The notes: generated from the letters alone by a model not told the origin. DNA of 53,467 nucleotides from a virus (IMGVR_UViG_3300010354_003850:1-53467), one strand, 5' to 3'. Counted from the first letter of the stretch, positions 6,940 to 53,467 are shown. Program-made: numbers and translations.

Positions 6940-7526
6940 TGGACTATTACAACACACACGAACTGAATGAGGCTACGCTCGTTCGCTTGTATCGTCATAC
7001 AACGGACAGGAACATCGGTATCATTTCTGCGTTCCGTGGTCGTTACACCAAGCAGGAGAACATGAAGCGCAGCAGCGATTTGGAATCATTGATTCGTGCT
7101 GCGGGGTTTGGGTTCTATCGCTTGGAGGGGCATTACATCGAAGGCTACGGTTCGGAGCAGTCGAAGGATGTCAAAGAGCGTTCCTATCTCATCATCGGAA
7201 ACAAGGGCGATGACAGCGGCAACCTGAAGGGGTTCCTCCGCAAGATGGGCGGCAAGTTCAATCAGGACTCCGTTCTCTACAAGCCATTCGACTCAAAGGC
7301 GGCAGTACTCATCGGCACACAGGCGCAGGATGAAGACGGCAATGCTGTTGAGTTCCCCGGCATGGGCAAGGAATTCTCCGTTGGGGAGTTCAAGCCAATG
7401 AAGGTGAATCAGTTCTATTCCAAGATGAAGGGAAAGCCATTTGTTTTTGAATCTTATGGTATTCAAAAGACTTGGTTTGAAGCCTTTGCTGATTACATTC
7501 GTTCAAAGCAGTCCGAAGCCACTTGA
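6939..7526 (+). CDS. conserved phage hypothetical protein (DUF3293-like)
   Basis: GIISAFR...EN...L...G.Y.E...E.S...F.QDSVL pattern. Confidence 0.55.
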   Translation: MDYYNTHELNEATLVRLYRHTTDRNIGIISAFRGRYTKQENMKRSSDLESLIRAAGFGFYRLEGHYIEGYGSEQSKDVKERSYLIIGNKGDDSGNLKGFLRKMGGKFNQDSVLYKPFDSKAAVLIGTQAQDEDGNAVEFPGMGKEFSVGEFKPMKVNQFYSKMKGKPFVFESYGIQKTWFEAFADYIRSKQSEAT

Positions 7527-7551
7527 CTCCCCGAAAGGGTTGTGATATGAT
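7523..7551 (+). promoter_or_regulatory. sigma70-like promoter, leaderless
   Basis: TTGACT-N17-TATGAT, ATG 7559 7 nt downstream. Confidence 0.7.
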
Positions 7552-7558
7552 TCACATC

Positions 7559-7849
7559 ATGGCAAAGATCATCGACAATCTAACCGAACAGCAGGATGCG
7601 CTCCGCAGCGAGATCATCGCTGCACTTCATGAGTCCGTTTGCAGCGTGACCTTCATCAAGTCAGACGGCACGGAGCGAGTCATGCAATGCACCCTTCTTC
7701 CCGAGAGGCTTCCGATTCGGGATGATGCCAACACAGGCAAGCCCAAGCCGAAGCGCACTCCGATGAATGTCGTTGTGTGGGACATCGAAAAGAGTGACTG
7801 GCGGTCATTTAACATTAAGAATGTAATCCGCTGGAAACGAGAGCGTTGA
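7559..7849 (+). CDS. WYL_2 (Sm/SH3-like) T4-type protein
   Basis: VTFIKSDGTERVMQCTL...VWDIEKSDWRSF. Confidence 0.75.
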   Translation: MAKIIDNLTEQQDALRSEIIAALHESVCSVTFIKSDGTERVMQCTLLPERLPIRDDANTGKPKPKRTPMNVVVWDIEKSDWRSFNIKNVIRWKRER

Positions 7850-7856
7850 ATCTCTT

Positions 7857-7930
7857 GTTCCCGTAACTCAGTTGGATAGAGTAGTTGCCTTCTAAGCAAC
7901 AAGTCGCTGGTTCGAATCCAGCCGGGAACG
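7857..7930 (+). tRNA. tRNA-Arg(TCT)
   Basis: Cloverleaf; anticodon arm GTTGC-CTTCTAA-GCAAC; TTCGAAT. Confidence 0.92.
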
Positions 7931-7935
7931 CTAAC

Positions 7936-8008
7936 GCTCTCGTAACTCAGTTGGTAGAGTAGCGGTCTTTTAAACCGCAAGTCATGGGTTCGAACCCCAT
8001 CGGGAGCA
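7936..8008 (+). tRNA. tRNA-Lys(TTT)
   Basis: Cloverleaf; GCGGT-CTTTTAA-ACCGC. Confidence 0.92.
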
Positions 8009-8029
8009 TTCGGCTAAATACCTGTGACC

Positions 8030-8557
8030 ATGAAATCCTTTATGCACCACATCACAGAGGCACCCAAAGGCGAAATCTACTGCGACATGGACGGTGTTCT
8101 GGTTGACATCATCGGCGGTCTTTCGAAACTTTACGGGATCAAGGATTTGAGCAATCGTAACTTTGATTCCTACATCGATCCGCTCAAGCCACAGATCGAC
8201 AAGGAGCATCCGAATCTATTTGCCGAACTTCCTTGGATGAAGGACGGCAAGCAGTTGTGGAACTACATCTCCAAGTACGAGCCGAACATTCTTTCCGCAC
8301 ACACCAACACATGGCAACCTAACTCAAAGGCTGACAAGAGAAAGTGGATTGAAAAGAATCTTCGTCCGCTTCCCAATCTCAGTCACATTCTTTTGCAGCG
8401 TCACAAAAAGAAGTACGCCACGAAGAATGGTGTGCCGAACATTCTTATCGATGATTGGAGCAAGAACATCGATGAGTGGAAGGCAGCGGGGGGAATCGGA
8501 ATCAAGCACAAGAGCGCAGCGGAGACAATTGCAGCATTGAAGAAACTTGGTTATTGA
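8030..8557 (+). CDS. 5'(3')-deoxyribonucleotidase, HAD/NT5C family; capsid-targeting-like N-terminus
   Basis: YCDMDGVLVD and LIDDWSKN motifs; MKSFMHHITE; CTAAATA at 8014-8020. Confidence 0.8.
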   Translation: MKSFMHHITEAPKGEIYCDMDGVLVDIIGGLSKLYGIKDLSNRNFDSYIDPLKPQIDKEHPNLFAELPWMKDGKQLWNYISKYEPNILSAHTNTWQPNSKADKRKWIEKNLRPLPNLSHILLQRHKKKYATKNGVPNILIDDWSKNIDEWKAAGGIGIKHKSAAETIAALKKLGY

Positions 8558-8561
8558 ATAT

Positions 8562-8634
8562 GGCGGGGTAGACCAACGGCAGAGTCAGTTGACTCAAAAT
8601 CAACAAAGTGTGGGTTCGAATCCCACTCCCGCTA
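8562..8634 (+). tRNA. tRNA-Leu(CAA) with short variable loop
   Basis: GTTGA-CTCAAAA-TCAAC; 5-nt variable region AAAGT; A73. Confidence 0.8.
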
Positions 8635-8653
8635 CTAGTGAAAGGAGTTTGTT

Positions 8654-8983
8654 ATGCAAGGCAACAATGGCGCAGGAAAGGGCGATGATTACCGCCCCGT
8701 AGACCTTGAGAAGTACGGCAAGAACTACGATGCCATCTTTGGCTCAAAGGAGCCGAAGAAAAAGAAAAACGAGAAGCCCCAAGACACATGGATCATCCCA
8801 ATTGAGGAATCCATGTTTTATGATTTGGACGAAAAGACGGGACAGGAAACTGCGGAGAAGAAGTGCTATATTCGCATCCCGCCCGAAGTTTGTCGCCGCA
8901 TGAAGATTCGTGTGGGCACACCGCTTGACATAAAGGTTGTGAATGGAACCATTCAAGTAAGAAAGGTGAAGGGAAAGAGATGA
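8654..8983 (+). CDS. hypothetical protein with C-terminal AbrB/MazE-like domain
   Basis: AAGGAG RBS; IRIPPEVCRRMKIRVGTPLDIKV. Confidence 0.55.
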   Translation: MQGNNGAGKGDDYRPVDLEKYGKNYDAIFGSKEPKKKKNEKPQDTWIIPIEESMFYDLDEKTGQETAEKKCYIRIPPEVCRRMKIRVGTPLDIKVVNGTIQVRKVKGKR

Positions 8984-9216
8984 GCGAAGAAACATATGTG
9001 CCGGGAAAGGCATACAACGAAGGATGGCAGGATCGCTACGCAGGAAAGTTGGAGCGTAGTTGGAATAGCATGGGAGGTTCACGGTCTCCGTATTGGGAGG
9101 AGTATCAGCAGGGTTATGCCGATGCCTCCAAGGAGATCATTGAGAATGCCCGCACCGCTGTTAAAAAGAACACAAACGAAGCCAAGAGTGACAGTCAAAC
9201 CTTTCTTTTTGGCTGA
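8980..9216 (+). CDS. small hypothetical protein (weak RMF-like pattern)
   Basis: AYNEGWQD...SPYWEEYQQGY. Confidence 0.55.
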   Translation: MSEETYVPGKAYNEGWQDRYAGKLERSWNSMGGSRSPYWEEYQQGYADASKEIIENARTAVKKNTNEAKSDSQTFLFG

Positions 9217-9224
9217 TATAAATA
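9217..9224 (+). promoter_or_regulatory. T4 late promoter consensus
   Basis: Exact TATAAATA, 7 nt before ATG 9232. Confidence 0.8.
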
Positions 9225-9231
9225 CCGTACC

Positions 9232-9597
9232 ATGACTCTAATTACCACACTACTTACCCTTCAGGCACAACTTCGTGTCCTGCATTGGCAAACAAAGTCT
9301 TACGCAGAGCATCAAGCATTGGGTGGTCTGTATGGAGACTTGGACGAAAAGATTGATGATTTCGTTGAGACCTTCTCCGGTCGATATGGTGTTCCTGCCG
9401 CAAAGACCGACTATAAACTGACGGTGGTCAATTACAAGGACAACGCAGGAGTTGTTCAGATTCTTGACACCGCAATCGGATACATGATGAAAGATGTTCC
9501 TGCCATGCTTAAGCCGGAGGATACTGATCTGTTGAACATCCGTGATGAGATTGTCGGTTCAATGAACAAGACCAAGTACTTGCTCAGACTTAAGTGA
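9232..9597 (+). CDS. ferritin/Dps-like four-helix protein (DUF5856-like)
   Basis: HWQTKSYAEHQALG.LY..L...ID.FVE. Confidence 0.7.
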   Translation: MTLITTLLTLQAQLRVLHWQTKSYAEHQALGGLYGDLDEKIDDFVETFSGRYGVPAAKTDYKLTVVNYKDNAGVVQILDTAIGYMMKDVPAMLKPEDTDLLNIRDEIVGSMNKTKYLLRLK

Positions 9598-9609
9598 TTG
9601 GAGATCATC

Positions 9610-10056
9610 ATGAAATGTGAATTTGATCGATATGAAGATGATCCAGACTATGGACCTAGCAGCACTTTCTATTACAAGTCCGGGTTTTCTTTACATATAG
9701 TACGAGTCCTTAACGGCATTGACATTCGACCAAAAATTAATGAAGATTGGAACGGCATATGTTCCCTTATTTCACGGAGCGATGCTGAAGTTTACATTTG
9801 GTTTGATTGTGTGATTGATGCGCTGACTCGGTATTTCTCGATTTACGGGAATTCTCCAAAGATACTAGTATCCTTTAAAGAAGATATGAGTGACGAATCT
9901 CCCACTTTCAAATACATTGTCAACGCATTCGCATCAATAGATTACACTTTAGTAAGGAAGATGAAGAAGGAATGTGGGGCGTGTGAAAATTTGTATTTGA
10001 TGGTCTTCAAGCATTCAACCGCCGAAGAGGTCGAACAGCCGTATGACCACTACTGA
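9610..10056 (+). CDS. hypothetical protein, paralogue A
   Basis: AT-rich ORF; aligns by eye with the next ORF; CxxC near C-terminus. Confidence 0.6.
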   Translation: MKCEFDRYEDDPDYGPSSTFYYKSGFSLHIVRVLNGIDIRPKINEDWNGICSLISRSDAEVYIWFDCVIDALTRYFSIYGNSPKILVSFKEDMSDESPTFKYIVNAFASIDYTLVRKMKKECGACENLYLMVFKHSTAEEVEQPYDHY

Positions 10057-10510
10057 TTGTCATTTTCAAAGAGTCTGGTTTCCTTCCAATGAAAGTGGAA
10101 CAATTTCTCATGCATATGACTACTCTTGTGGACTGACTGTACGCATATACGGAAACATTGGTGACGAACTGATTACTATCAAACCACACATTAGCAACAA
10201 CTTTTCTGCCATATGCGAAAAAATGCAAATCATGACGGAAACTCTATCTATGTGGTTTGATGTTGTAAAAGACTCAGTTGTACGACACATCGAAAATACG
10301 ATGTATCGTCCAAAGTACATCATGATAGCCTTCAAAAAGAATCTTTCGGATGACCCCGTTATTGAGCAACAGGTGATTGACAGGTTTGAATCAATAGGCT
10401 ATAATCTGCACAAAGAGATGACTAGAAAGTGTCTAAATTGTGATGACGCAAGTGATCTCTACATTACTGTCTTTAGAAACAAAGGGGTCGAACAGGAATC
10501 GATTGCATGA
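10043..10510 (+). CDS. hypothetical protein, paralogue B
   Basis: Shared IC, WFD, FK...SD, CxxC and LY..VF motifs. Confidence 0.6.
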   Translation: MTTTDCHFQRVWFPSNESGTISHAYDYSCGLTVRIYGNIGDELITIKPHISNNFSAICEKMQIMTETLSMWFDVVKDSVVRHIENTMYRPKYIMIAFKKNLSDDPVIEQQVIDRFESIGYNLHKEMTRKCLNCDDASDLYITVFRNKGVEQESIA

Positions 10511-10824
10511 GTACTGATGAGTGATGCGCCAAGAGGAACCATGCTAGGCTCTTAAAAGCGTATGGAAATCAAGACTGCCAACAAGCAGACTCGCCGTTAC
10601 GCTCTCGCAGCGTGACCTCAAACCACCCGACTCCGCTAGGGTGGGGAGAGCAAACAGCGGATGGGCTTTCGGGAACGGGAACGCCGAAGGAAGCCGAGAA
10701 CAAAGAGTCCCAATCTGATCCGCTAAGTCGCCTTCAGCGGCGGGTCTGAACAAGTGAAGGATATTGGCGTAGTAAGCACCACGGAATGCATGACAACACG
10801 GGGGTTCGAATCCCCCCGACTCCA
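10484..10824 (+). ncRNA. ssrA: tmRNA, tag peptide (A)ANKQTRRYALAA
   Basis: Acceptor GGGGTCG/CGACTCC-A with G3:U70; T-arm GGGGG-TTCGAAT-CCCCC; tag frame 10577-10615 ending YALAA-TGA. Confidence 0.9.
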
Positions 10825-10830
10825 CTAACT

Positions 10831-10902
10831 GCGGATGTAACTCAACGGTAGAGTGCCACCCTTCCAAGATGGCTGTTGTGGGTTCGAATCCCATCATCCG
10901 CT
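10831..10902 (+). tRNA. tRNA-Gly(TCC)
   Basis: GCGGATG/CATCCGC acceptor, CTTCCAA loop, U73. Confidence 0.9.
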
Positions 10903-10927
10903 TCTTTGATAGATCAACGAAACGCTA

Positions 10928-11151
10928 ACCAAGGAGATACAATGAACGCCGTCCATAGTTAACTATTATTGATTGAGTCGGTGTGTAGGTCCGTTGGTGT
11001 ACCCTAGGTACTATACCCTTCCGAAAGGATGTAAAACGGCAGCACCGACACTCGGACCGATGGCGGGAATGTCCATCGTTTTGGCAAGTAGTGGAATGTT
11101 CTTGCCATGTAATGGCAAATACATCTCCGGTCTGACCCACCTCACGGGTCA
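10928..11151 (+). ncRNA. candidate multi-stem structured RNA inside the tRNA cluster
   Basis: Nested and adjacent complementary segments; no convincing long ORF. Confidence 0.4.
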
Positions 11152-11158
11152 TTTCTAT

Positions 11159-11230
11159 TGGCTCGTAGCACAACGGTAGTGCATCCCGCTGTTAACGGGA
11201 CGGTTGAAGGTTCGAATCCTTCCGAGCCAG
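11159..11230 (+). tRNA. tRNA-Asn(GTT)
   Basis: TCCCG-CTGTTAA-CGGGA; TGGCTCG/CGAGCCA. Confidence 0.92.
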
Positions 11231-11231
11231 T

Positions 11232-11302
11232 TCCCTTGTGGTGTAACGGTAGCACAGGAGATTTTGGTTCTTCTAGTTTTGGTTCGAATCCAAGCGAGGG
11301 AA
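11232..11302 (+). tRNA. tRNA-Gln(TTG)
   Basis: GGAGA-TTTTGGT-TCTTC; TCCCTTG/CGAGGGA. Confidence 0.88.
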
Positions 11303-11307
11303 CCTAT

Positions 11308-11379
11308 GCCGTCTTAGCACAGCGGTAGTGCAGTTGATTTGTAATCAACAGGTCATCGGTTCGAATCCGATAGGCGGCT
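11308..11379 (+). tRNA. tRNA-Thr(TGT)
   Basis: GTTGA-TTTGTAA-TCAAC. Confidence 0.92.
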
Positions 11380-11395
11380 TTGGTCTGATAATCAC

Positions 11396-11477
11396 GGGAG
11401 TGTACTCAAGCGGACAACGAGGGCAGACTGTAAATCTGCTGCCATTGGCTACGGGGGTTCGAATCCCTCCGCTCCCA
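11396..11477 (+). tRNA. tRNA-Tyr(GTA)
   Basis: GCAGA-CTGTAAA-TCTGC; long variable arm. Confidence 0.92.
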
Positions 11478-11480
11478 TTC

Positions 11481-11509
11481 TTGACACGGGGGAAGTTCTG
11501 TGCTATGAT
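11481..11509 (+). promoter_or_regulatory. sigma70-like promoter, leaderless
   Basis: TTGACA-N17-TATGAT with extended TG; ATG 11517 7 nt downstream. Confidence 0.75.
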
Positions 11510-11516
11510 CGTCAAT

Positions 11517-11897
11517 ATGAACAATTACACCTTCACCTTCGGAAGTCGTTACGGCGAGAAGAGAACTGCAACCTTGATTGAGGAAGAGAAGGGACAGGCT
11601 ACCTTCCATGTGCATGGCGTATCTCGCTATGTCCGTGGTGGAGAAGACATGTTCGACTTTGAGGGTGGTCCGTTCTATGGGGTCGGTGGCGACTTCCATG
11701 GGCGAGGAGACATTCTCTCCGTTGTCCCTGCACCTAGAGTGGTTCCCGCAGATCAGAATGATTCTGTTGGGGGATGCCTTGTTGTGGTCAAGTTGAACAA
11801 GGATGCCAAGAAGGAAATTCAGAAGTGGAACGAAAGCCGTCCCAAGATCGAAGCACTCAAGCAGGAGATCGGTGAATGGCTAGACAATGGGGAATAA
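11517..11897 (+). CDS. hypothetical protein
   Basis: MNNYTFTFGSRYGE...; upstream part of the ORF-track call overlaps tRNAs and is excluded. Confidence 0.65.
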   Translation: MNNYTFTFGSRYGEKRTATLIEEEKGQATFHVHGVSRYVRGGEDMFDFEGGPFYGVGGDFHGRGDILSVVPAPRVVPADQNDSVGGCLVVVKLNKDAKKEIQKWNESRPKIEALKQEIGEWLDNGE

Positions 11898-12262
11898 AAC
11901 TGTACAGCGGCAATGAAGACCGTGGTTGGGTTGTTTCGCACGGGCGTGTTGTCGCAGTCTACGAAGACAAGGACTTTGCAGAAAAGGAAGCAGAATGGCT
12001 GACGAACTTTCAGAAGAAGTGCGGAACGAAGAATCAGTACAAGGCAACCAAGTGGACTCCCGAGGAGGGAATGGAAACCCAAGTACAAGTGCCGCAATCG
12101 ACAAGATCGCAAAACTCGCTGACGCTCTCCGAGCATCGCAAGAAAAGCGTAGAGAAGAAATCGAAGCCCGTTACCCAAGGGTCTTCGGCGGTGGCACCAA
12201 CTCTCCCGACAAATCTATCGGAACTGTTTATTGGGAATTTGGATACGGATGGGACTCCCTGA
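11876..12262 (+). CDS. hypothetical protein (3' part overlaps next gene)
   Basis: GGAG RBS; protein-like N-terminal 70 aa. Confidence 0.4.
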   Translation: MARQWGIKLYSGNEDRGWVVSHGRVVAVYEDKDFAEKEAEWLTNFQKKCGTKNQYKATKWTPEEGMETQVQVPQSTRSQNSLTLSEHRKKSVEKKSKPVTQGSSAVAPTLPTNLSELFIGNLDTDGTP

Positions 12263-12594
12263 TCGAAAACCTTGCGGCGGCTATCGACCGTGAGATTGAA
12301 CACGATCCTTCCCTCCTCATCGAAGACCATGAGAACGGCAAGTTTGCCTTCAAGGTTGAGCAGATGAAGGAGAAGTTCGGCGCACTCCGTTTCTACTACA
12401 GCGGAGGAAACGATAGGATTCATGGTCTCGTTGACATGACAGAGAACCTGTCTGCAAGCGTTTGCGAGGTTTGTGGTAGTCTTGGGACTCTGTGCAAGAA
12501 GGACAACGGTTCTTGGATGAAGACCCTGTGCGAGGACTGTGCGGAAAAGATGGGATTCACCCCCATTTTGTTTGATGATGATGCAGAGGCATGA
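11995..12594 (+). CDS. conserved phage protein with KEKFGxLRFY motif and C-terminal Zn ribbon
   Basis: GWDSLI...QMKEKFGALRFY...CEVCG...LCEDC. Confidence 0.7.
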   Translation: MADELSEEVRNEESVQGNQVDSRGGNGNPSTSAAIDKIAKLADALRASQEKRREEIEARYPRVFGGGTNSPDKSIGTVYWEFGYGWDSLIENLAAAIDREIEHDPSLLIEDHENGKFAFKVEQMKEKFGALRFYYSGGNDRIHGLVDMTENLSASVCEVCGSLGTLCKKDNGSWMKTLCEDCAEKMGFTPILFDDDAEA

Positions 12595-12611
12595 TGTCAT
12601 AAATAGTGGAT

Positions 12612-13016
12612 ATGGCTAACCAATTCGACAACCCACTAGTAAATGACATCATCAAGGTGATCTCCGAGGAAACAAATCCGCCCATGACTCTTGTAGTCAA
12701 CGGCACGAACGCAAAGACTCTGGATTTCACCGAGGACGCAAACGATCCTTCCGTCCACCTGTTTGGTCTTGGGGTTAGGAAACTCTCCACCCTGAAGAAA
12801 GAGATTCAGCAGGACTTGATGCGGTTCACTCAATTGGTCGGCAACAGGGATGCAAAGGATCTCATGGTTTACCTGACCGATTTTCAAGGCAAGTATTCGA
12901 GCAATATGTACTTCGCCTATAAGATTCAAGCCTTGATGGAAATCGAAGAGTTCATGAAGCGTCCCGAAGTCAAGCGCAAGGTGACCTTGATCAAGAAGAA
13001 GAAGCAAGGTGGCTAA
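12612..13016 (+). CDS. hypothetical late protein
   Basis: ATAAATA 12599-12605, ATG 6 nt later. Confidence 0.6.
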   Translation: MANQFDNPLVNDIIKVISEETNPPMTLVVNGTNAKTLDFTEDANDPSVHLFGLGVRKLSTLKKEIQQDLMRFTQLVGNRDAKDLMVYLTDFQGKYSSNMYFAYKIQALMEIEEFMKRPEVKRKVTLIKKKKQGG

Positions 13017-13416
13017 AGCATTGAGAAACAATGCCCGTGTGACAAGTTGTCGCACACGCACATGCGCCCCCACGGGCGAGATGAAGGCATTGATTGCAGC
13101 CAAGTTGGGCAAGGGCGGCAAGTCTGATGACCGTGGCTATTCCGAAATTCTTGCTTTGGTTGACAAGATGGTTGAATCGAATGTTTGGGGAGGCAGCATC
13201 AAGGGATACCTTTTCAAGGGATCGGTTGATACTGGTACAAGGAGTGCGGTCACGGGATTCGCCAGAAGCAACGGCTGGCAACAGACAAATGGAAAGCGAA
13301 TCGTAAAGTATGGAATCATCATTCGTGGTGGCAAGCAGAACCGCCGTCACCTTCTCATCTTCGGTTACTATCGTGGAACCCCAAACCGAGCATACTGCTC
13401 ATTAACTGTAATATGA
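13009..13416 (+). CDS. basic hypothetical protein
   Basis: 135-aa ORF overlapping previous stop. Confidence 0.5.
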   Translation: MAKALRNNARVTSCRTRTCAPTGEMKALIAAKLGKGGKSDDRGYSEILALVDKMVESNVWGGSIKGYLFKGSVDTGTRSAVTGFARSNGWQQTNGKRIVKYGIIIRGGKQNRRHLLIFGYYRGTPNRAYCSLTVI

Positions 13417-13434
13417 AAAAGATCATTCAATTGT

Positions 13435-13463
13435 TTGACATGAAAGGTCGTAGGGTGTATGAT
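13435..13463 (+). promoter_or_regulatory. sigma70-like promoter
   Basis: TTGACA-N17-TATGAT. Confidence 0.7.
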
Positions 13464-13514
13464 TTCGCCCACGATTGGGAAAACGACTTACCATCTCTTG
13501 AAAGGAGAATCGTT

Positions 13515-13820
13515 ATGCGTCAGAGAACAGGTGTGATTGAGAATATTCGTACTGGTACTTTTTTCATGGCTGTGGGTGTCGTTGCTTCGGCGGCGGCTTG
13601 CTACTTCGCATGGACCGGCAACCTTGCCGTGGCGATTGGTCTTGTTGCCGTTGGTGGACTGCTACATGCCGCAGGGAGCGCAGTTTCCTTTGCGAACGAG
13701 CGTCTTGAGTCGGTAACTACCGAGTACCGTGAGCGGGAGAACACCCGTGAAATCTGGACAAACATCAGCCGCATCGAAGATCGGCTTGAAGAGTTGCAGA
13801 CAAAGCGCAGCACCAAGTAA
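13515..13820 (+). CDS. membrane protein (two TM helices plus charged coiled-coil tail)
   Basis: AAGGAG RBS before ATG 13515; two hydrophobic segments. Confidence 0.65.
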   Translation: MRQRTGVIENIRTGTFFMAVGVVASAAACYFAWTGNLAVAIGLVAVGGLLHAAGSAVSFANERLESVTTEYRERENTREIWTNISRIEDRLEELQTKRSTK

Positions 13821-13841
13821 GATTCATTGTAATCTTATTTG

Positions 13842-13875
13842 GGGAGGGGGGTTCCGCTACTCCCCCCTCCCTTTT
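13842..13875 (+). terminator. intrinsic terminator
   Basis: GGGAGGGGGG...CCCCCCTCCC-TTTT. Confidence 0.8.
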
Positions 13876-13879
13876 GCTA

Positions 13880-13953
13880 GGCCCCATCGTCTAGTCGGTC
13901 TAGGACACCTCCCTTTCACGGAGATAACAGGGGTTCGAATCCCCTTGGGGTCA
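13880..13953 (+). tRNA. tRNA-Glu(TTC)
   Basis: GGCCCCATCGTCTAG start; CTTTCAC loop; TTCGAAT. Confidence 0.9.
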
Positions 13954-13976
13954 TTGGAGAGATAAATATGGAAGAT

Positions 13977-15125
13977 ATGCAATCGTTTAGCGAATTCGCC
14001 GTAGAAATCACCGATGTCCTCAAGGAATCCACCGAGGGGCATAAGTTTCAAAACGACTTGGCAAAGAAGATTCTTGCTTCCCTGACACCACAGCAGCGCA
14101 AGAAGGTCAAGGTAGTTGTCGCTCCTCCAAGTTCCACCCTTCCTGACATATCGATTATTCACAAGGACTATCCGAACGAGCCGCTGATCATCGAATGCAA
14201 ACTCGACAATGCACAGTCTGGCGGCATCACATGGGTGTTTGATGGTTCAAATTGGCAGTTCTCTACCCGTTCTGCACGGGCGAAGAGAATGTGCGAGTTG
14301 GACGATCCAACTCTGTGCGTCACCGTCATTGACATGGTTAAGAGTCCGCTCGTTCGAAACCGGATCGACAAGATTCAGTCGGAGTTGGGCAAGTGGTTCC
14401 CCGAACTATCAAGCAACAAGATTCCATTTCAGGCTTGCAAGGAATTCTGGCCCACCCTACTAGACAAGTACACCACGCATGACGAGGGCGGGAAGTGGCA
14501 GATTCCTGTCAGCAATACCTTCTGGAAGACATTGAACTCGCTCATGAAAAATGACCACTTCCTTGCCATCAGGGGATCGGGTTTGTTCCGTGTGGGTGGT
14601 GCAAAGTATCCTAGTTGGTTTCAGCCAACCAAGGAATTCCTTGCCACGATGCCTATTGTTTCGGAAATCACCGCAGCCCCAAAAGGAAACCTTGAACTTC
14701 GCCTGAAGCAGTCAGGAATGAAGCAGCGCAAGTTGCAAGCCAACCGTGTGCTACACATTCACTCCACCACAAAGCCAACGGTCGGACAGCATGTCCATGT
14801 TCAAGAATTGGGGAGCCTTGGTAAGAGTGGTGATTACAACGCACCAATCGGTCTGATCAGCAGCAAGGGTTCGACAACATACATCGTCAGTTCATCGGAG
14901 TCCGGTTCGATTGGGCAGATCAAGACAATTCATTCCGTGACACTAGATCCCAAGAGTGCCAACAAGAAGAGCGGGGACAAGGTATGGATCGTCAAGTGTG
15001 ATCTGAATCACCGTGTTGGCACGATCACTTTTGAGACCAACCTTCGTATCATTGACATCGATGTGAAGAGTGGAGTCAACCTTGAGACTAGTGCGGAAGA
15101 CTTTGCCCTGTTCTTCAAGGCATAA
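13977..15125 (+). CDS. PD-(D/E)xK nuclease-like protein; capsid-targeting-like N-terminus
   Basis: GHKFQNDL...PDISI...IIECK; MQSFSEFAVE; ATAAATA 13962-13968 (alternative start 13968). Confidence 0.55.
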   Translation: MQSFSEFAVEITDVLKESTEGHKFQNDLAKKILASLTPQQRKKVKVVVAPPSSTLPDISIIHKDYPNEPLIIECKLDNAQSGGITWVFDGSNWQFSTRSARAKRMCELDDPTLCVTVIDMVKSPLVRNRIDKIQSELGKWFPELSSNKIPFQACKEFWPTLLDKYTTHDEGGKWQIPVSNTFWKTLNSLMKNDHFLAIRGSGLFRVGGAKYPSWFQPTKEFLATMPIVSEITAAPKGNLELRLKQSGMKQRKLQANRVLHIHSTTKPTVGQHVHVQELGSLGKSGDYNAPIGLISSKGSTTYIVSSSESGSIGQIKTIHSVTLDPKSANKKSGDKVWIVKCDLNHRVGTITFETNLRIIDIDVKSGVNLETSAEDFALFFKA

Positions 15126-21392: not shown

Positions 21393-22082
21393 ATGCCATA
21401 CAAAGATCCCGAAAAAAAGAAGTCTGCTGCCAAGGCAAGATACCTTGCTAATAGAGAGAAAAAAATTGCACAAGCAAAAGCATGGGTAGAGTCTCATCGT
21501 GAACAGATGCGAGAAAATCACAGAAGATGGCAAAAAGAAAACAGGGATCGTGTCAAGAGGTATCAGAAGAAATACGAATCAAAGGATCCAAAAAAATGGA
21601 AGGATTGGAAAAACAAGTGGAGAAGAGACTGGTATAAGAACAATCCTGAAAAGGCAGCGGAGTTGTGGAGAGTTAAGTTATATCGGAAAACCAAAAGTTT
21701 GGTGCCTCTTACAGCCAAAGAAAAACAAGCAGTTCTTTTGCTAGAGAAAACACGAAAGCAACTTCAAAAAGAGACAGGGCGAATCTATCATATAGATCAC
21801 ATTTTCCCGATTGTTCATGGTGGCATCCATCATCCGATCAACTTGAGAATACTTGATGGGACTGACAATTCTTCAAAACGAGATAAACTCCTTCCTGAAG
21901 CGATTGATCTTGCATATGACCACTACAAGTTGTATTATGAGCGAATCAGTCCCGAAAGAGCAGAGGACTTCGTGAAGCAACTTGCAAATGCGATTGGGCT
22001 GAACGAGGAAGAGATCGACTTGAAGAACAAAAAACTGCCCGCCCTACCACAGAAAGCGACATTGGAGGATTTATTCACATGA
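21393..22082 (+). CDS. free-standing HNH endonuclease
   Basis: Basic helical N-terminus; HIDHIFPI..GG.H...NLRIL....N. Confidence 0.85.
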   Translation: MPYKDPEKKKSAAKARYLANREKKIAQAKAWVESHREQMRENHRRWQKENRDRVKRYQKKYESKDPKKWKDWKNKWRRDWYKNNPEKAAELWRVKLYRKTKSLVPLTAKEKQAVLLLEKTRKQLQKETGRIYHIDHIFPIVHGGIHHPINLRILDGTDNSSKRDKLLPEAIDLAYDHYKLYYERISPERAEDFVKQLANAIGLNEEEIDLKNKKLPALPQKATLEDLFT

Positions 22083-22474
22083 GCAAACCATTCGGATACT
22101 CTTACTACTTGGACATGTATCGCTGCCGTATTGGATCGGCAGATGACCTAGAACTACACTACCGCTTTCTTGAGAGAGTGGTGGACAAGATCGGCATGAC
22201 CCGCATGAGTCAGCCTGTCGTGATTCACGGACCAACACAGAACGGGAAGGAACTGTATCCTGCGAAGGCTGGCGTGAGCGGTTGGGTTCCGCTGATCGAA
22301 AGCGGCATTCAGATTCACTCAATCGAACCCAAGCGTTTCATCACGCTTGATGTATACTCCTGCAACAAGTTTGACAAGCAGATCATCCTTGACTATGCTC
22401 GGGAGTGCTTTGACTTTGAGCAGCACGAAGAGCATTTCTTCGTTCGTGGCATGGGTTATGGGGATATCGAATGA
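22079..22474 (+). CDS. speD: S-adenosylmethionine decarboxylase proenzyme (pyruvoyl)
   Basis: GVSGWVPLIES, IHS.EP, TLDVYSC. Confidence 0.8.
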   Translation: MSKPFGYSYYLDMYRCRIGSADDLELHYRFLERVVDKIGMTRMSQPVVIHGPTQNGKELYPAKAGVSGWVPLIESGIQIHSIEPKRFITLDVYSCNKFDKQIILDYARECFDFEQHEEHFFVRGMGYGDIE

Positions 22475-22755
22475 AGAAGATAACACCTGTCGGCAAATGG
22501 ATTGCGGTAAAGACTGAAGGACTTGGTGCTGAAAAGAAAACCGAGTCGGGAATCATCTACAAAGAGAAGATTACCAATCCAAACATTTGGAGCGTGGTTG
22601 TCGCCATCGGCAACAAGGTGAGCGAAGACATTCGAATCGGTGATCGGGTTCTTTGGGACTTGACAAAGAACACAACCCGTGTAGGATATCAGTCTTGCGA
22701 TCTGATTCATCAAGACTGGATTCATGCAACGGAGAGAACTGATGCCAACGCATAA
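22471..22755 (+). CDS. GroES-like co-chaperonin
   Basis: ITPVGKWIAVK...EKKTESGII...VVAIG...IGDRV. Confidence 0.75.
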   Translation: MKKITPVGKWIAVKTEGLGAEKKTESGIIYKEKITNPNIWSVVVAIGNKVSEDIRIGDRVLWDLTKNTTRVGYQSCDLIHQDWIHATERTDANA

Positions 22756-23695
22756 GATTATTTTGGGTGACTGCATCAAGGGAATGAAGACGCTGCCTGA
22801 AGGCTGCATCAACACCTGTGTCACTTCGCCGCCGTATTTCGGCTTGCGTAACTATGGTGGTGGCGAGGACGAGATCGGACAGGAAGCAACCGTGGACGGA
22901 TTCGTTGAGAAGATGGTGGAGGTCTTCCGTGGCGTTCATCGCATTCTTCGTGATGATGGAACCCTGTGGCTGAACCTTGGCGACTCCTACATGTCTGCCA
23001 ACTGCGTCCCGCCCCCACAGACGGTTGCAAACGGAAACCACCGTGACATGCCGACCGACTTCGTTCCATCGAATCGACAGCCACAGAAGGGATTGAAGCA
23101 GAAGGACTTGATCGGCATTCCGTGGCGAGTGGCATTTGCCCTGCAAGCGGACGGTTGGTATCTCCGTCAGGATATCATTTGGCACAAGCCAAACCCGATG
23201 CCCGAGAGCGTGGAAGATCGTTGCACCAAGGCACACGAATACATCTTCCTTCTGTCCAAGAAGCCACGGTACTATTATGACTTTGAGGCAATCAAGGAAC
23301 CCGCCAAGGATTGGGGTACACGGGATCGAACCAACGGCAAGTACACCGCAGAGGACACCGAGTTCGGCTTGGAGCCGCATGGCGGTCTGAAGAACGGCAA
23401 CTTTGCCGAGCGTGGAAAGAACAAGCGTTCCGTTTGGAGCGTGACCACCAAGCCGTATCGTGGGGCGCACTTTGCCACCTTCCCGAAGGACTTGATTCTT
23501 CCGTGCGTCTTGGCAGGATGCCCCAAGGACGGCACGGTGTTCGATCCCTTCACGGGAAGCGGAACCACGGCGGTAGTTGCCCTGAACAACGGACGAAACT
23601 TCATTGGCACGGAACTCAATCCCGAGTACATTAAGATTGCCGAAGGGCGAATCGGGGAAGAGGTGAAACCGACCCTTGAAGGATTGTTTTCATGA
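22742..23695 (+). CDS. DNA methyltransferase, N4-C/N6-A beta class, copy 1
   Basis: TSPPY precedes HFATFP and DPFTGSGTT. Confidence 0.93.
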   Translation: MPTHKIILGDCIKGMKTLPEGCINTCVTSPPYFGLRNYGGGEDEIGQEATVDGFVEKMVEVFRGVHRILRDDGTLWLNLGDSYMSANCVPPPQTVANGNHRDMPTDFVPSNRQPQKGLKQKDLIGIPWRVAFALQADGWYLRQDIIWHKPNPMPESVEDRCTKAHEYIFLLSKKPRYYYDFEAIKEPAKDWGTRDRTNGKYTAEDTEFGLEPHGGLKNGNFAERGKNKRSVWSVTTKPYRGAHFATFPKDLILPCVLAGCPKDGTVFDPFTGSGTTAVVALNNGRNFIGTELNPEYIKIAEGRIGEEVKPTLEGLFS

Positions 23696-24675
23696 CGGTG
23701 AGTCATAGAATACTTCACGGCGATTGCATTCAAATGATGAAGACGCTGCCCGATGGTTGCGTCAATACTTGCATTACATCGCCGCCGTATTTTGGTCTCC
23801 GTGATTACAAAGGGGGTACGGCTGAAATTGGATGCGAGTCTTCCCCTGAAGAGTATGTCCGAAAGATAGTCGATGTCTTCCGTGAGGTTTACCGCATTCT
23901 GCGTGACGATGGAACGCTGTGGCTGAACCTTGGCGACTCTTATGCAAGCAATGGCTGTTACATTAATTCATGGTTGCAGAAAGAACACAATAAAGGCAAG
24001 AAGCATTTGCACACAAACAACCATGAAAGGTATGAAGATCGCAAGGCATTTCGTGGTGGAGAATACGGGATCAAATCCAAGGACTTGATGGGGATTCCAT
24101 GGCGAGTTGCACTTGCATTGCAGCAGGATGGTTGGTATCTGCGGCAGGACATCATTTGGCACAAGCCAAACCCCATGCCTGAAAGCGTTGAGGATCGTTG
24201 CACCAAGGCTCATGAGTACATCTTTCTACTGACGAAGAACCCAAAGTATTACTATGACTTTGATGCTGTTAAGGAGCCTGTTGCTCAAAGCACGGTAAGT
24301 CGATTGGCTCAAAAAAACTTGCCGAATCAAATCGGAAGCACCCGAGTGCCCGGAAAGACGAATGGCAACATGAAGGCTGTGGGCAATTCGGAAAAAAGAA
24401 ACCGCAGATCAGTTTGGACGGTGAATGTAAAAGGATACAAAGGAGCGCACTTCGCAACCTTTCCAAAGGAATTGATTGAGCCGTGTGTCTTGGCAGGATG
24501 TCCCGTTGGCGGCGTTGTGTTTGATCCATTTACGGGCAGCGGGACTACTGCCGTGGTTGCCCTGAACAATCAAAGAAACTTTGTGGGAACCGAGTTGAAT
24601 TCCGATTATGTCTGCCTTGCAGAGAGTAGAATCTCCGAAGAAGCACCGCAAACCCTCAAGGACATCCTTGCATGA
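23692..24675 (+). CDS. DNA methyltransferase, N4-C/N6-A beta class, copy 2
   Basis: Same motifs; close paralogue differing in two variable segments. Confidence 0.93.
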   Translation: MTVSHRILHGDCIQMMKTLPDGCVNTCITSPPYFGLRDYKGGTAEIGCESSPEEYVRKIVDVFREVYRILRDDGTLWLNLGDSYASNGCYINSWLQKEHNKGKKHLHTNNHERYEDRKAFRGGEYGIKSKDLMGIPWRVALALQQDGWYLRQDIIWHKPNPMPESVEDRCTKAHEYIFLLTKNPKYYYDFDAVKEPVAQSTVSRLAQKNLPNQIGSTRVPGKTNGNMKAVGNSEKRNRRSVWTVNVKGYKGAHFATFPKELIEPCVLAGCPVGGVVFDPFTGSGTTAVVALNNQRNFVGTELNSDYVCLAESRISEEAPQTLKDILA

Positions 24676-27212
24676 AGCCGTTCTATACATCCGTAAATCA
24701 AAAGGGCAGTCGCATTCAGCACCGTGGCTACGACAAGAACGGCTCCCGTGTGCATGAGTCCCTGACATTCCGCCCAACCCTCTATGTTCCCACCAAGAAG
24801 CCGAAGCCGACTTCGTGGAAGACCATCGATGGCTTGACTGTCGATCCCGTTGATTTCGAGAACACCTACGAGGCATGGGAGTTCATGAAGAAGTACTCCG
24901 ATGTTGAGGGGTTCAAGGTCTACGGCGACATCGAAGCGCAGTATCAGTTCATTGCGGAGAACTACGGAAGCGAGGGGGAGTTGGAGTACGACTCTTCCCT
25001 GATCCGCATCATGTACATCGACATCGAAGTTGAGAGTGAGGACGGCTTTGCTTCCCCTGACACTCCCACCGAGCGCATCAATGCCATCACCCTGCACATG
25101 GGCGGGAAGACATTCTCTTTCGGCTTGGGGGAGTTCAAGGTTGAAGGCGTGAATTGTTATTCGTTTGAAGACGAAGCCGCCATGCTGCGACACTTCCTTG
25201 AGGCATGGGAGGAACTTGATCCTGACATCATCACGGGGTGGAATGTCAACATGTTCGACATGCCGTACCTGTACCGCCGTATTGAAAAACTCATGGGCGA
25301 GAAGGAAGCCAAGCGTCTGTCTCCATGGCGTGAAGTACGCAATCGCAAGGTTGTCATCATGGAGCGGCAGAATTGGGTGTATGACTTTGCGGGGATCAGC
25401 ATCCTTGATTACATGGATTTGTACCGCAAGTTCACCTTTGTCACCCGTGAGTCCTACAAGTTGCAGCACATTGCCATGGTTGAGTTGGGCGAGGGCAAAA
25501 TCGACTATTCCGATGTCGGTACGCTTACGAACCTGTATCAGCAGGATTTTCAGCGATTCGTGGAGTACAACATCAAGGACACCATGATCGTTTCGCAATT
25601 GGAGGACAAGTTGCGCCTGATCGAACTTGCACAGGCACTTGCCTACAGCGCACGGGGAAACTTCGGGGATGTCTTCTCACAGGTGCGAATGTGGGACAGC
25701 ATCATCTACAACCATCTGCGAACCAAGAAGATCACCATCCCGCCGAAGACGGGCAACGACAAGGACAACCAATTCGAAGGTGCATATGTCAAGTCTCCCA
25801 TCATCGGCGGTCATGATTGGGTGGTTTCCTTCGACTTGGACTCGCTTTACCCACACCTGATCATGCAGTACAACTTGAGTCCCGAGACCATCGTTTCGGA
25901 ACGGTTGCCATCGATCAGCATGGACGCTCTGCTCAATCCCGGTAGCGATCCTTCTTTTGAGGGATTCCTGTCCATGGCGAAGGAGAAGAATCTGTGTGTT
26001 GCCGCCAACGGAACGATGTATCGGCGTGACATTCATGGCTTCTTGCCCGAACTCATGGATACCATGTATGCACAGCGCAAGGAATACAAGAAGCGAATGC
26101 TTGAGGCGAAGGGGTGGATCAAGACGGAGGGCGGCAAGGCTAGCCCCGATCAGGTTGCCTCCAAGAAGAAAGAAGTCTCCAAGTACCACAACTTTCAGTT
26201 GGTGCGTAAGGTGCAGTTGAACAGCGCATTCGGTGCGTTGGGAAACCAATACTGCCGTTACTACAACTTGAGCATGGCAGAGGCGATCACGGTATCAGGG
26301 CAGTTGTCCATTCGTTGGGCAGAGGAGAACCTGAACCGCTTTCTGAACAAGGCTTGCGACACCGAGGGCGAGGACTTCGTGATTGCCGTGGACACCGACT
26401 CGGTGTATCTGCGGCTCGGTCCATTGGTCGCCAAGGCTTTGCCGAAAGGCGACACCAAGAAGACCACGCTCCTTGTGGACAAGTTCTGCAACGAGGTGAT
26501 CTCCCCGAAGATCAACAAGTGGTACGAGCAGTTGGCAGTCCGCATGAATGCATATGGCAATCGAATGTCCATGAAGCGGGAGGCAATTGCATCAAAGGGA
26601 GTATTCACCGCCAAGAAGCGGTACATGCTTGCCGTCCACCTTGGGGAAGACAATGTTTATATGGACGATCCCGATCTCAAGATTATGGGCATCGAAACCG
26701 CCCGTTCATCGACCCCGCAGATCGTCCGTACAAGGCTCAAGGAGGCGATCAAGTTGATCCTGACCGCTGACGAGGGGGCATTGCACTCTTTCGTTGAGAG
26801 GTGCCACAGCGAGTTCCTAGGGCTTCCCGTGTACGACATCGCCTTTCCCCGTGGCTGCAATGGAATGGATGATTATGCGGACGCTGCCAGCATCTACAAG
26901 AAGGGCACCCCGATCCATGTAAAGGGTGCATTGGTCTACAACTATTGGGTCAAGAAGAAGGGGCTGACCAAGAAGTACCCGCTTGTACGCAACGGAGAAA
27001 AGATCAAGTTCGTTGCCCTGAAAGAACCGAACCCCGTTCGTGAAAAGGTCATTTCATTTCCTGCTGCCTTTCCAGACGAGTTTGGTTTGGACAAGTTCAT
27101 CGACCACGAAACGCAGTTTGAGAAGTCATTTATCGAACCCCTGTCAACTATCCTTGGCTGCATCGGTTGGTCTGTCAGGGAAGAAAGTTCATTGGAAGGA
27201 TTGTTCTCATGA
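24672..27212 (+). CDS. gp43: family B DNA polymerase
   Basis: DIEV exonuclease, SFDLDSLYP, KVQLNSAFG, DTDS, KKRY; C-terminal SLEGLFS. Confidence 0.98.
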   Translation: MKPFYTSVNQKGSRIQHRGYDKNGSRVHESLTFRPTLYVPTKKPKPTSWKTIDGLTVDPVDFENTYEAWEFMKKYSDVEGFKVYGDIEAQYQFIAENYGSEGELEYDSSLIRIMYIDIEVESEDGFASPDTPTERINAITLHMGGKTFSFGLGEFKVEGVNCYSFEDEAAMLRHFLEAWEELDPDIITGWNVNMFDMPYLYRRIEKLMGEKEAKRLSPWREVRNRKVVIMERQNWVYDFAGISILDYMDLYRKFTFVTRESYKLQHIAMVELGEGKIDYSDVGTLTNLYQQDFQRFVEYNIKDTMIVSQLEDKLRLIELAQALAYSARGNFGDVFSQVRMWDSIIYNHLRTKKITIPPKTGNDKDNQFEGAYVKSPIIGGHDWVVSFDLDSLYPHLIMQYNLSPETIVSERLPSISMDALLNPGSDPSFEGFLSMAKEKNLCVAANGTMYRRDIHGFLPELMDTMYAQRKEYKKRMLEAKGWIKTEGGKASPDQVASKKKEVSKYHNFQLVRKVQLNSAFGALGNQYCRYYNLSMAEAITVSGQLSIRWAEENLNRFLNKACDTEGEDFVIAVDTDSVYLRLGPLVAKALPKGDTKKTTLLVDKFCNEVISPKINKWYEQLAVRMNAYGNRMSMKREAIASKGVFTAKKRYMLAVHLGEDNVYMDDPDLKIMGIETARSSTPQIVRTRLKEAIKLILTADEGALHSFVERCHSEFLGLPVYDIAFPRGCNGMDDYADAASIYKKGTPIHVKGALVYNYWVKKKGLTKKYPLVRNGEKIKFVALKEPNPVREKVISFPAAFPDEFGLDKFIDHETQFEKSFIEPLSTILGCIGWSVREESSLEGLFS

Positions 27213-27337
27213 GAATGCTTGAATCATTGCTCCATGTAGGAGTATTCCTTGTAATTGTTTACATCTTCATCTGTGCTTCAGTCATGGTGCTGAACCCTAA
27301 ATACCGTCAATGGCGAAGAGATTCGAATCATTCGTAA
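27209..27337 (+). CDS. 42-aa single-TM peptide (not in ORF track)
   Basis: ATGA overlap with gp43; MRMLESLLHVGVFLVIVYIFICASVMVLNPKYRQWRRDSNHS. Confidence 0.45.
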   Translation: MRMLESLLHVGVFLVIVYIFICASVMVLNPKYRQWRRDSNHS

Positions 27338-32672: not shown

Positions 32673-32673
32673 C

Positions 32674-34532: not shown

Positions 34533-34533
34533 C

Positions 34534-35145: not shown

Positions 35146-35147
35146 TC

Positions 35148-36313: not shown

Positions 36314-36344
36314 ATACTCCGCACAAAGGAGTGAGGTATACACT

Positions 36345-37247: not shown

Positions 37248-37258
37248 GGACGATTGCA

Positions 37259-51870: not shown

Positions 51871-53467
<1,597 letters not shown>

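Follow-up and report, generated by a model that had tools for sequence, protein, structure and literature searches.

Loss of restriction-type words from a T4-like phage lineage extends to tRNA D-stems and the Trp-Pro dipeptide

The viral contig IMGVR_UViG_3300010354_003850 (one contig of 53,467 bases, analysed whole and called the window below) represents part of the genome of a lytic, T4-like freshwater phage. Its DNA was found to lack AGCT, ACGT and CGCG altogether, together with longer words of the types that we take to be recognised by restriction enzymes. The purge reaches transfer RNA (tRNA) genes, in which changes in the D-stem remove the word and keep the stem paired, and it reaches the dipeptide Trp-Pro, which is depleted. 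Selection by many Type II restriction enzymes of the host is very probably its cause.

Word counts in the window

Words were counted in the window and compared with two expectations. A codon-aware null was made with 200 shuffles of synonymous codons within the 65 genes called on the + strand, preserving each protein and the codon usage of each gene. A maximal-order Markov expectation was calculated for the whole window. AGCT was observed 0 times (Markov 106; shuffle 152.4 ± 9.4, lowest of 200 shuffles 130), as were ACGT (Markov 119; shuffle 127.7 ± 8.5, lowest 106) and CGCG (Markov 110; shuffle 105.5 ± 7.7, lowest 84). GGCC was observed 6 times (Markov 137; shuffle 120.1 ± 8.4, lowest 100). 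GATC (312 observed, Markov 348) and TCGA (254 observed, Markov 291) were not depleted. Since the shuffles preserve proteins and codon usage, the deficit is far beyond chance. The original prediction, read from the sequence by eye, had noted no AGCT, had described ACGT and CGCG as absent or very rare and GATC and TCGA as common, and had proposed a codon-aware count. Its reading was right on each of these words, and the zeros are nowhere near the 152, 128 and 105 sites of the shuffles.

Longer words were counted in the same way (values are observed/shuffle). CASTG (0/61) and CGWCG (0/93) were absent, and CCWGG (7/75) and CTNAG (14/124) were rare. About 20 six-base words were likewise at zero. 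Six-base classes free of avoided four- and five-base words (GGCC counted as avoided) and with an order-3 Markov expectation of at least 6 were then compared; 9 of 29 palindromic classes were at zero, against 8 of 1823 non-palindromic ones. The missing palindromes included CGATCG (0/14.6), CTGCAG (0/14.5), AGATCT (0/15.1) and GTCGAC (0/9.5), and, among degenerate palindromes, RGCGCY (0/26.6), GRCGYC (0/33.7), GWGCWC (0/31.1), GRGCYC (0/27.1), YGGCCR (0/35.0), WGGCCW (0/36.4), RGGWCCY (0/16.2) and GACNNNGTC (0/12.3). Asymmetric words at zero were ACCTGC (0/25.7), CGTCTC (0/18.0), GACGAC (0/23.4), GCACGC (0/11.7) and CCCAGC (0/14.5). The missing words are overwhelmingly palindromes or words of recognition type. 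Sites found at expectation were GATC, GANTC, CATG, TGCA, GAATTC, ATCGAT, TTCGAA and CCATGG, among others.

The called genes cover 49,854 of the 53,467 bases, all on the + strand (minus-strand frames of up to 330 residues were left unscreened). Although the called genes are one-stranded, non-palindromic words were lost in both orientations. CACTG and CAGTG were each at 0, as were CGACG and CGTCG, and the pooled counts of ACCTGC/GCAGGT, CGTCTC/GAGACG and GACGAC/GTCGTC were zero. This argues for selection on duplex DNA and not on transcripts. Nor do the words occur in the 3,099 non-coding bases of the window. An RNA-level cause, in which transcripts containing the words would be at a disadvantage, for instance through cleavage by a sequence-specific RNase, would find some precedent in Pandoravirus dulcis and Pandoravirus quercus, which are AGCT-free with no restriction explanation known in the portion of the preprint available (bioRxiv 10.1101/712018). 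With the losses in both orientations and in non-coding DNA, it is extremely improbable here.

Related phages

Relatives were sought among viral contigs with the family B DNA polymerase of the window (T4 gp43 type; 24672-27212, + strand) as marker, and 24 loci were obtained. AGCT, CASTG, CGATCG and CTGCAG were at 0 in all 12 loci with 76-90% polymerase identity, and ACGT was at 0 in 11 of these 12 (L006 has 1). Three loci at 90% identity, like the window, also had no CGCG, CGWCG, AGATCT or GCATGC. Nine loci at 76-81% identity kept CGCG (18-64 copies) and had no CCGG. The remaining 12 loci, at 46-50% identity, were marine cyanophage-like (about 39-43% G+C) and held 3-29 copies of AGCT and 10-61 copies of ACGT.

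The same zeros were thus present in 12 contigs with different metagenome identifiers, which rules out a sequencing or assembly artefact; host-like contigs of the same genome bin showed normal counts, no point was found in favour of an artefact, and such an origin is almost certainly wrong.

One relative, G001 (168,426 bases, estimated 93% complete), is longer than the window and gives greater statistical power. Its counts (observed/expected) were AGCT 0/415, ACGT 0/419, CCGG 0/559, GGCC 79/478 and CGCG 504/623. It lacks or nearly lacks CASTG, CCAGA, RGCGCY, GRCGYC, GWGCWC, CGATCG, CGTACG, CTCGAG, CTGCAG, GTCGAC, GTGCAC, TCGCGA, TGCGCA, TGGCCA, CACGAG, GACGAC and GCACGC. The absence of AGCT, ACGT, CCGG and CASTG from a genome that keeps CGCG shows that the avoided set is lineage-specific. 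The sister sets differ in CGCG, CGWCG, AGATCT, GGTACC, GACNNNGTC and CGTCTC on one side and CCGG and CCAGA on the other, and such differences fit host-specific enzyme repertoires.

This variation also bears on self-avoidance, in which site-specific nucleases of the phage itself would shred host DNA at these words and the phage would lack them for that reason. T4-type phages are generally known to degrade host DNA, and many genes of the window have no family match, which leaves room for an unrecognised nuclease. About 20 or more words in a set that varies between sister lineages would nevertheless call for dozens of nucleases with rapid turnover, and zero matches to restriction-endonuclease families were found among 50 proteins scanned. 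Self-avoidance is quite unlikely on these grounds.

Replacement of CGCG could be followed in the polymerase gene. At 17 alignment positions the sister lineage has CGCG and the lineage of the window has none. The spanning codons encode identical residues at 9 of these positions and different residues at 8, and the replacements are varied (CGCA, CATG, TGCC, CGTG, CAAG and others).

The marine cyanophage-like contigs (within L012-L024) show a different purge of their own. CCGG was at 0 in 12 of 12, CGCG at 0-1 in 11 of 12 (L012 has 7) and GATC at 0-5 in 11 of 12 (L012 has 53).

D-stems of tRNA genes

tRNA genes were called with ARAGORN, which found 10 in the window, and with Rfam RF00005. Eight tRNAs in the stretch searched scored 51.7-71.9 bits with RF00005 (gathering score 29). 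The Rfam consensus reads UAGCuu at positions 8-13, so that AGCU is part of the family consensus. D-arm starts of TAACTCA in Arg, Lys and Gly and of TAGCACA in Asn and Thr had been described in the original prediction and were found as described. tRNA-Arg(UCU) (7857-7931, +), tRNA-Lys(UUU) (7936-8008, +) and tRNA-Gly(UCC) (10831-10902, +) read UA-ACUC...GAGU, with an A10-U25 pair. tRNA-Asn(GUU) (11158-11231, +; 11159-11230 in Rfam) and tRNA-Thr(UGU) (11308-11379, +) read UA-GCAC...GUGC, with an A12-U23 pair. All four D-stem pairs are formed in each of the five. The G10-C25 position is nearly universal in the tRNA core.

A clade set of 46 tRNAs (10 from the window, 11 from G001, 6 from part of G003, 16 from G004 and 3 from L157) was compared with a baseline of 70 distinct tRNAs from the phages S-CRM01, S-PM2, syn9, S-SSM4 and S-MS29 (called by ARAGORN, 30 loci kept from 77 Rfam matches). 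AGCT was borne by 0 of 46 clade tRNAs and by 28 of 70 baseline tRNAs (Fisher p = 6e-8, a value that overstates independence because the clade sequences are related). CASTG was borne by 0 of 46 and 14 of 70. For tRNAs on high-GC contigs of a Cyanobium bin, AGCT lay within the first 30 bases in 12 of 26.

Comparison of orthologues is the strongest evidence for compensation. tRNA-Arg(UCU) adjoins tRNA-Lys in each record compared. Its D-stem is GCUC/GAGC in four of four marine cyanophages and GCGC/GCGC in G001; the window and G004 have ACUC/GAGU, as does G002, a more distant phage with which some of these tRNAs are shared. The copy in L157 (contig C413, bin G006; 1578-1652, -) reads GCGC/GAGC, with a single U12-to-G change and a G12-A23 mismatch. 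A single change separates it from the canonical GCUC/GAGC, and another single change from the GCGC/GCGC stem seen in G001, so that it is apparently a half-compensated intermediate. tRNA-Thr(UGU) is GCUC/GAGC in all four named phages and GCAC/GUGC or GCAG/AUGC in the clade. Orthologues of tRNA-Lys(UUU) with the same acceptor stem read ACUC/GAGU in the window and G001 and GCGC/GCGC in L157. In tRNA-Gly(UCC), ACUC/GAGU was common to all 5 clade copies seen.

The stems of 32 Arg, Lys, Thr and Asn tRNAs were aligned and the 31 distinct rows counted. Stem cells were paired in 99.5%. Pair 10-25 was G-C in 23 rows, A-U in 7 and G-U in 1; pair 12-23 was U-A in 17, A-U in 10, G-C in 3 and unpaired in 1. 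Two paired compensatory solutions had been proposed in the original prediction. At least three were found, with one intermediate, and the proposal holds less well for Lys and Gly, as set out below.

In G002 (a 145,204-base viral contig; loci L066-L073) AGCT was borne by 0 of 15 tRNAs, and AGCT-free tRNA genes near-identical to those of the window were seen. Its genome is partly purged (observed/expected: AGCT 73/444, ACGT 15/355, TCGA 140/445). The sharing suggests exchange of tRNA cassettes among phages of one host community.

Surviving GGCC sites and protein sequence

All six surviving GGCC sites of the window have the form GGCCC/GGGCC. Three are Trp-Pro encoded by TGG-CCC (14448-14453, 34407-34412 and 37991-37996, all +), two are Gly-Pro, and one forms the first four acceptor-stem bases of tRNA-Glu(UUC) (13880-13953, +), where it is kept in relatives. 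Trp is encoded by TGG alone and all Pro codons start with CC, so Trp-Pro always contains GGCC and offers no synonymous escape; as we read the genetic code, no other dipeptide must contain one of the avoided 4-mers. All three Trp-Pro use CCC, and TGGCCA, TGGCCG and TGGCCT, of the zero-count YGGCCR and WGGCCW classes, are thereby avoided.

Trp-Pro is depleted 3-5 fold. The window has 3 where 10.0 are expected, with 11 Pro-Trp as control, and 1.1% of residue shuffles of the window gave as few Trp-Pro. G001 has 6 against 29.0 expected (Pro-Trp 36), and the clade loci, which overlap G001 and are mutually related, have 4 against 28.9 (Pro-Trp 32). Values elsewhere were 84 against 106.7 (Pro-Trp 158) and 32 against 42.5 (Pro-Trp 54) in two sets, A and B, of diverse bacterial loci, and 14 against 15.3 (Pro-Trp 24) in the marine cyanophage-like contigs. 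Selection against GGCC has thus reached protein sequence.

The depletion also argues for selection and not for mutation bias, in which cytosines within the words, methylated by host or phage enzymes, would decay by deamination and the words would erode without selection. Several features agree with such a bias. C is present in every avoided word, both methyltransferases of the phage (below) look like cytosine enzymes with an SPPY motif, and the G10-to-A change in the tRNAs is what C-to-T on the other strand would give. Bias alone is not expected to bring hundreds of expected sites to exactly zero, however. The varied replacements at the 17 orthologous CGCG positions and the U12-to-A and U12-to-G changes in the tRNAs, which are not deamination products, also speak against it. 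Survivors cluster where synonymous change is impossible, and this clustering and the loss of Trp-Pro are both signatures of selection. Mutation bias as the cause is very unlikely.

Methyltransferases and other predicted anti-restriction proteins

Two DNA methyltransferase genes (PF01555, E 1e-52 to 3e-53) lie in tandem on the + strand. Methyltransferase 1 (22724-23695) has SPPY at residue 35, FTGSG at residue 276 and the tail TLEGLFS; methyltransferase 2 (23692-24675) has SPPY at residue 30, FTGSG at residue 280 and the tail TLKDILA. SPPY precedes FTGSG in both, which is the beta-class order of SPPY before FxGxG. SPPY marks N4-cytosine enzymes, and the nearest solved relatives of both proteins include CcrM and N4-cytosine enzymes. 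Both look like N4-cytosine enzymes of the beta class. Among the C-containing sites still present, such as GATC, TCGA, CATG and TGCA, some may be covered by these two enzymes.

A protein of the S-adenosylmethionine (SAM) lyase family (PF23780; 6939-7526, +) scored 50 bits against a cut-off of 28. The SAM lyase activity of phage T3 counteracts SAM-dependent restriction, and the protein is a possible second anti-restriction device. With the methyltransferases and this protein present, site loss seems to be one layer of several. A SAM decarboxylase (SpeD-like) protein is encoded at 22079-22474 (+). From its lyase and decarboxylase families and its two methyltransferases, the phage is thus predicted both to consume and to destroy SAM.

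Similar C-terminal tails were seen in four proteins, namely the polymerase (SLEGLFS), methyltransferases 1 and 2, and a 229-residue protein of no assigned function (TLEDLFT; 21393-22082, +). In T4-type phages the tail of the polymerase binds the sliding clamp. By analogy, since their tails are like that of the polymerase, the methyltransferases may work on the clamp at the replication fork.

Host

A cyanobacterial host is favoured by several observations. The nearest cultured relatives are cyanophages, at least 4 contigs of a relative lie inside the Cyanobium bin G006, and the tRNA set of the window reads codons ending in A or U, as is typical of phages with a lower G+C content than the host. 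The photosystem II gene psbA is usual in Kyanoviridae. Its family (PF00124) was detected in a control Synechococcus elongatus genome and in none of 5 related records, the 93%-complete G001 among them. The phage is not filed as a cyanophage for this reason, and a cyanobacterial host is not established.

Six-base words were counted in 151 cyanobacterial genomes, and 10-40 kb was then sampled from each of 30. Ten large genomes were chosen by the fewest GACGTC and CTGCAG among the 151 scanned. GWGCWC, GRGCYC, GTCGAC and TGCGCA, which were not used in the choice, were absent or nearly absent in all ten, as in the phage, and were undepleted in 8 high-GC picocyanobacterial genomes and in about 720 kb of diverse bacterial loci; this pattern, too, speaks for a cyanobacterial host. 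The ten genomes (5-7 Mb; G026, G032, G035, G041, G047, G065, G071, G092, G110 and G122) have single- or double-digit counts each of GACGTC and CTGCAG. Their samples, of 16-40 kb, contain almost no GGWCC, GWGCWC, GRGCYC, GTCGAC or TGCGCA, and GRCGYC is almost absent in nine of the ten (G035 has 24 against 35 expected). Low counts of TAGCTA in some genomes were accounted for by avoidance of CTAG or by high GC content. CASTG was at about 0.2-0.5 of its dinucleotide expectation in the high-GC picocyanobacteria G007, G061, G067, G091, G109, G121, G133 and G142, and also in G031 and G106; the comparison value in diverse bacterial loci was 0.83. The low values in those picocyanobacteria might hint at a CASTG-specific system in the group.

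Homologues were also examined. The closest genomic homologues of methyltransferase 1 and of a UDP-galactopyranose mutase of the window lie on short low-GC contigs in Cyanobium, Crocinitomicaceae and Gemmatimonadetes bins. Lying on such contigs in unrelated bins, they look like binned phage contigs and carry little host information. Other matches of the two proteins were scattered over many phyla. A search for spacer-type matches, run with 20 kb of the window on 401 cyanobacterial genomes, yielded nothing beyond short matches of the kind that chance would give. One perfect match of 26 bases (L310) was rejected as a spacer as no repeat array adjoins it.

Proposed explanation

The word counts with their null models, the avoided sets (shared and lineage-specific), the paired changes in tRNAs and the scarcity of Trp-Pro are direct results; restriction enzymes as the selecting agent, and the particular enzymes and host, are inferred. 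Over a long period, selection on the phage lineage would have eliminated every word that the Type II endonucleases of its host population cut. Whatever its methylation history, DNA that lacks the site is safe from the enzyme, and with every site lost an injected genome becomes more likely to survive. In genes, changes that can leave the protein as it is would account for most of the losses. In tRNA genes, a single base change in the D-stem would have destroyed the AGCU of positions 9-12, and a change of the partner would then have restored pairing; G10-C25 would have become A-U, and U12-A23 would have become A-U or G-C. At Trp-Pro sites, the dipeptide would have been lost or the least dangerous form, TGG-CCC, kept. 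The original prediction had named strong selection by host 4-bp restriction systems that the phage methyltransferases would not cover, with an 'AluI-like' enzyme among them as the presumed cutter. Selection on restriction sites is the best-supported explanation of the data, on account of the kind of words lost, their loss in both orientations and the differing avoided sets of related lineages; the limitation to 4-bp systems did not hold, because the purge extends to CASTG, CGWCG and about 20 six-base words.

Several points weigh against this explanation. The purge of GGCC is incomplete, with the 6 remaining sites, and GGCC is as frequent in tRNAs of the clade (7 of 46) as in those of the named cyanophages (10 of 70). 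The assignment of particular enzymes to the words is presumptive, and the counts alone were computed. The clade loci and clade tRNAs are related, and neither the Fisher p-values nor the Trp-Pro counts in relatives are independent. The stem ACUC/GAGU with A10-U25 is found as well in S-PM2 (tRNA-Lys(UUU) and tRNA-Val) and in S-CRM01 (tRNA-Val and tRNA-Lys(CUU)), phages in which other tRNAs do bear AGCT; the sole Gly(UCC) outgroup seen has GUUC/GAAC. The AGCU-free stems of Lys and Gly may be ancestral and older than the purge, and with A10-U25 present in phages that have AGCT-bearing tRNAs they cannot be shown to be a response to it. On the side of the host, CGATCG, absent from the phage, is several-fold over-represented in all ten large cyanobacterial genomes. 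A purge of AGCT or ACGT approaching that of the phage was seen in none of the 30 cyanobacterial genomes sampled, where only partial deficits were found (G041, ACGT 22 against 47; the AT-rich, 2.0-Mb G123, AGCT 40 against 121 and ACGT 18 against 80). The Cyanobium bin's own DNA is undepleted (observed/expected: AGCT 369/322, ACGT 73/82, GGCC 1083/1096). The homologue, spacer and word-count searches pinned down no host, restriction enzyme or methylome.

It is about an even chance that the missing words can be read as a record of the restriction repertoire of an uncultured host population, under a pressure strong enough to rewrite G10-C25 and strip out Trp-Pro. If this is true, restriction enzymes constrain RNA structure and protein sequence, beyond silent sites, and differing sister sets would mark host switches that could be traced from sequence alone.

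Other genes in the window

A T4-type replication module was recognised in the window by Pfam and PHROG matches. On the + strand it includes family matches for the sliding clamp, clamp-loader subunits and RegA, a DnaB-type helicase, UvsX/RecA and a primase. The best matches of the polymerase in the phage collection were Synechococcus myophages, at amino-acid identities of just 48-49%, and a near-identity DNA search with positions 7000-15000 of the window against the phage collection gave zero matches.

Sugar-metabolism genes take up some 10 kb between UvsX and the helicase (29535-39974, +). This block encodes GT7-like, GT10-like, GT90 and GT47/exostosin glycosyltransferases and a DUF707 protein, as well as the UDP-galactopyranose mutase, a nucleotidyl transferase, an NAD-dependent epimerase/dehydratase and an FkbM-type methyltransferase. 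Candidate targets of these enzymes are the cell surface, virion proteins and DNA. At 27310-28080 a polysaccharide deacetylase is encoded. A protein of 1200 residues (42779-46381, +) has RimK-type ATP-grasp, putative ATP-dependent zinc protease, DUF3140 and DUF6321 domains. A collagen-repeat protein (51871-53466, +) runs past the end of the window and holds one of the Gly-Pro GGCC sites, at 52307.

A phage gene for transfer-messenger RNA (tmRNA; 10484-10827, +) lies directly upstream of tRNA-Gly. It was matched by Rfam RF00023 with 77.7 bits (gathering score 47) and missed by ARAGORN. Read in frame from 10577, it encodes the tag ANKQTRRYALAA and then a stop.

Comparison with known systems

The Kyanoviridae (syn9, S-PM2, S-SSM4, S-MS29 and S-CRM01) have the same type of replication module as the phage of the window and also carry tRNA clusters. 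They differ from it in the polymerase, with an identity of only about 49%, and marine Kyanoviridae-like loci keep AGCT and ACGT.

Large cyanobacterial genomes resemble the phage in that GRCGYC (in nine of ten), GWGCWC, GRGCYC, CTGCAG, GTCGAC and TGCGCA are almost absent in most or all of them. They are unlike it in keeping AGCT, ACGT and CASTG and in their abundance of CGATCG. In the portions of these reports available, palindromes make up 51% of the rarest 1% of 6-mers in Microcystis PCC 7806 (Frangeul et al., 2008, PMC2442094), and bloom-forming cyanobacteria are described as having exceptionally many restriction systems (PMC8262939).

Loss of a single 4-mer has been described in other viruses (Poirot et al., 2019, bioRxiv 10.1101/712018; statements here follow the part of the preprint available). 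Two pandoraviruses are AGCT-free, and an RNA-level idea is discussed there and rejected. As in the phage, AGCT is at zero in one clade and kept in a sister clade, and the replacements look undirected. The pandoraviruses are eukaryotic giant viruses, however, in which AGCT alone is affected and for which the authors rejected a restriction model experimentally; in the phage many words of restriction type are missing together, in agreement with restriction. The same preprint reports five enterobacterial phages of 345-359 kb without GCGC, for which its authors invoke isoschizomers of a 4-bp cutter. These phages, like the present clade, have wholly lost a 4-bp palindrome from a large phage genome. 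They miss one 4-mer, whereas G001 misses three (AGCT, ACGT and CCGG) and the window three (AGCT, ACGT and CGCG).

A literature search of limited extent on restriction-site avoidance in phages found no description of changes in tRNA D-stems or of loss of Trp-Pro. The number of words purged at once, the paired D-stem solutions with an intermediate and the depletion of Trp-Pro seem to be new. The reach of site avoidance is illustrated by the removal of at least three 4-bp words from about 170 kb, and its cost is visible at the protein level in the loss of Trp-Pro. The tRNA genes offer a natural experiment in compensatory RNA evolution, in which the same tRNA was solved three ways and a half-finished intermediate survives. 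Knowledge of the avoided set could help in assigning hosts to uncultured phages, and in designing DNA able to withstand entry into cyanobacteria rich in restriction systems, or into other hosts.

Non-temperate double-stranded DNA phages are documented to evade restriction by eliminating sites, mainly orthodox Type II ones; in a survey of almost 4000 viruses, roughly one genome in ten showed complete or near-complete elimination (Rusinov et al., 2018, PMC6286503, as far as its text was available). The words tRNA and amino acids occur 0 times each in the main text of that study as available. The phage of the window is like the phages described there in that recognition-type words, mostly orthodox Type II palindromes, are completely or nearly completely eliminated, and in its virulent-type architecture. 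It differs from the cases in the available text in how many words are at or near zero at once (three palindromes of 4 bp, two words of 5 bp and about 20 of six bases), and in that the effect extends to tRNA stems and a dipeptide. The phenomenon is of a known kind and unusually complete.

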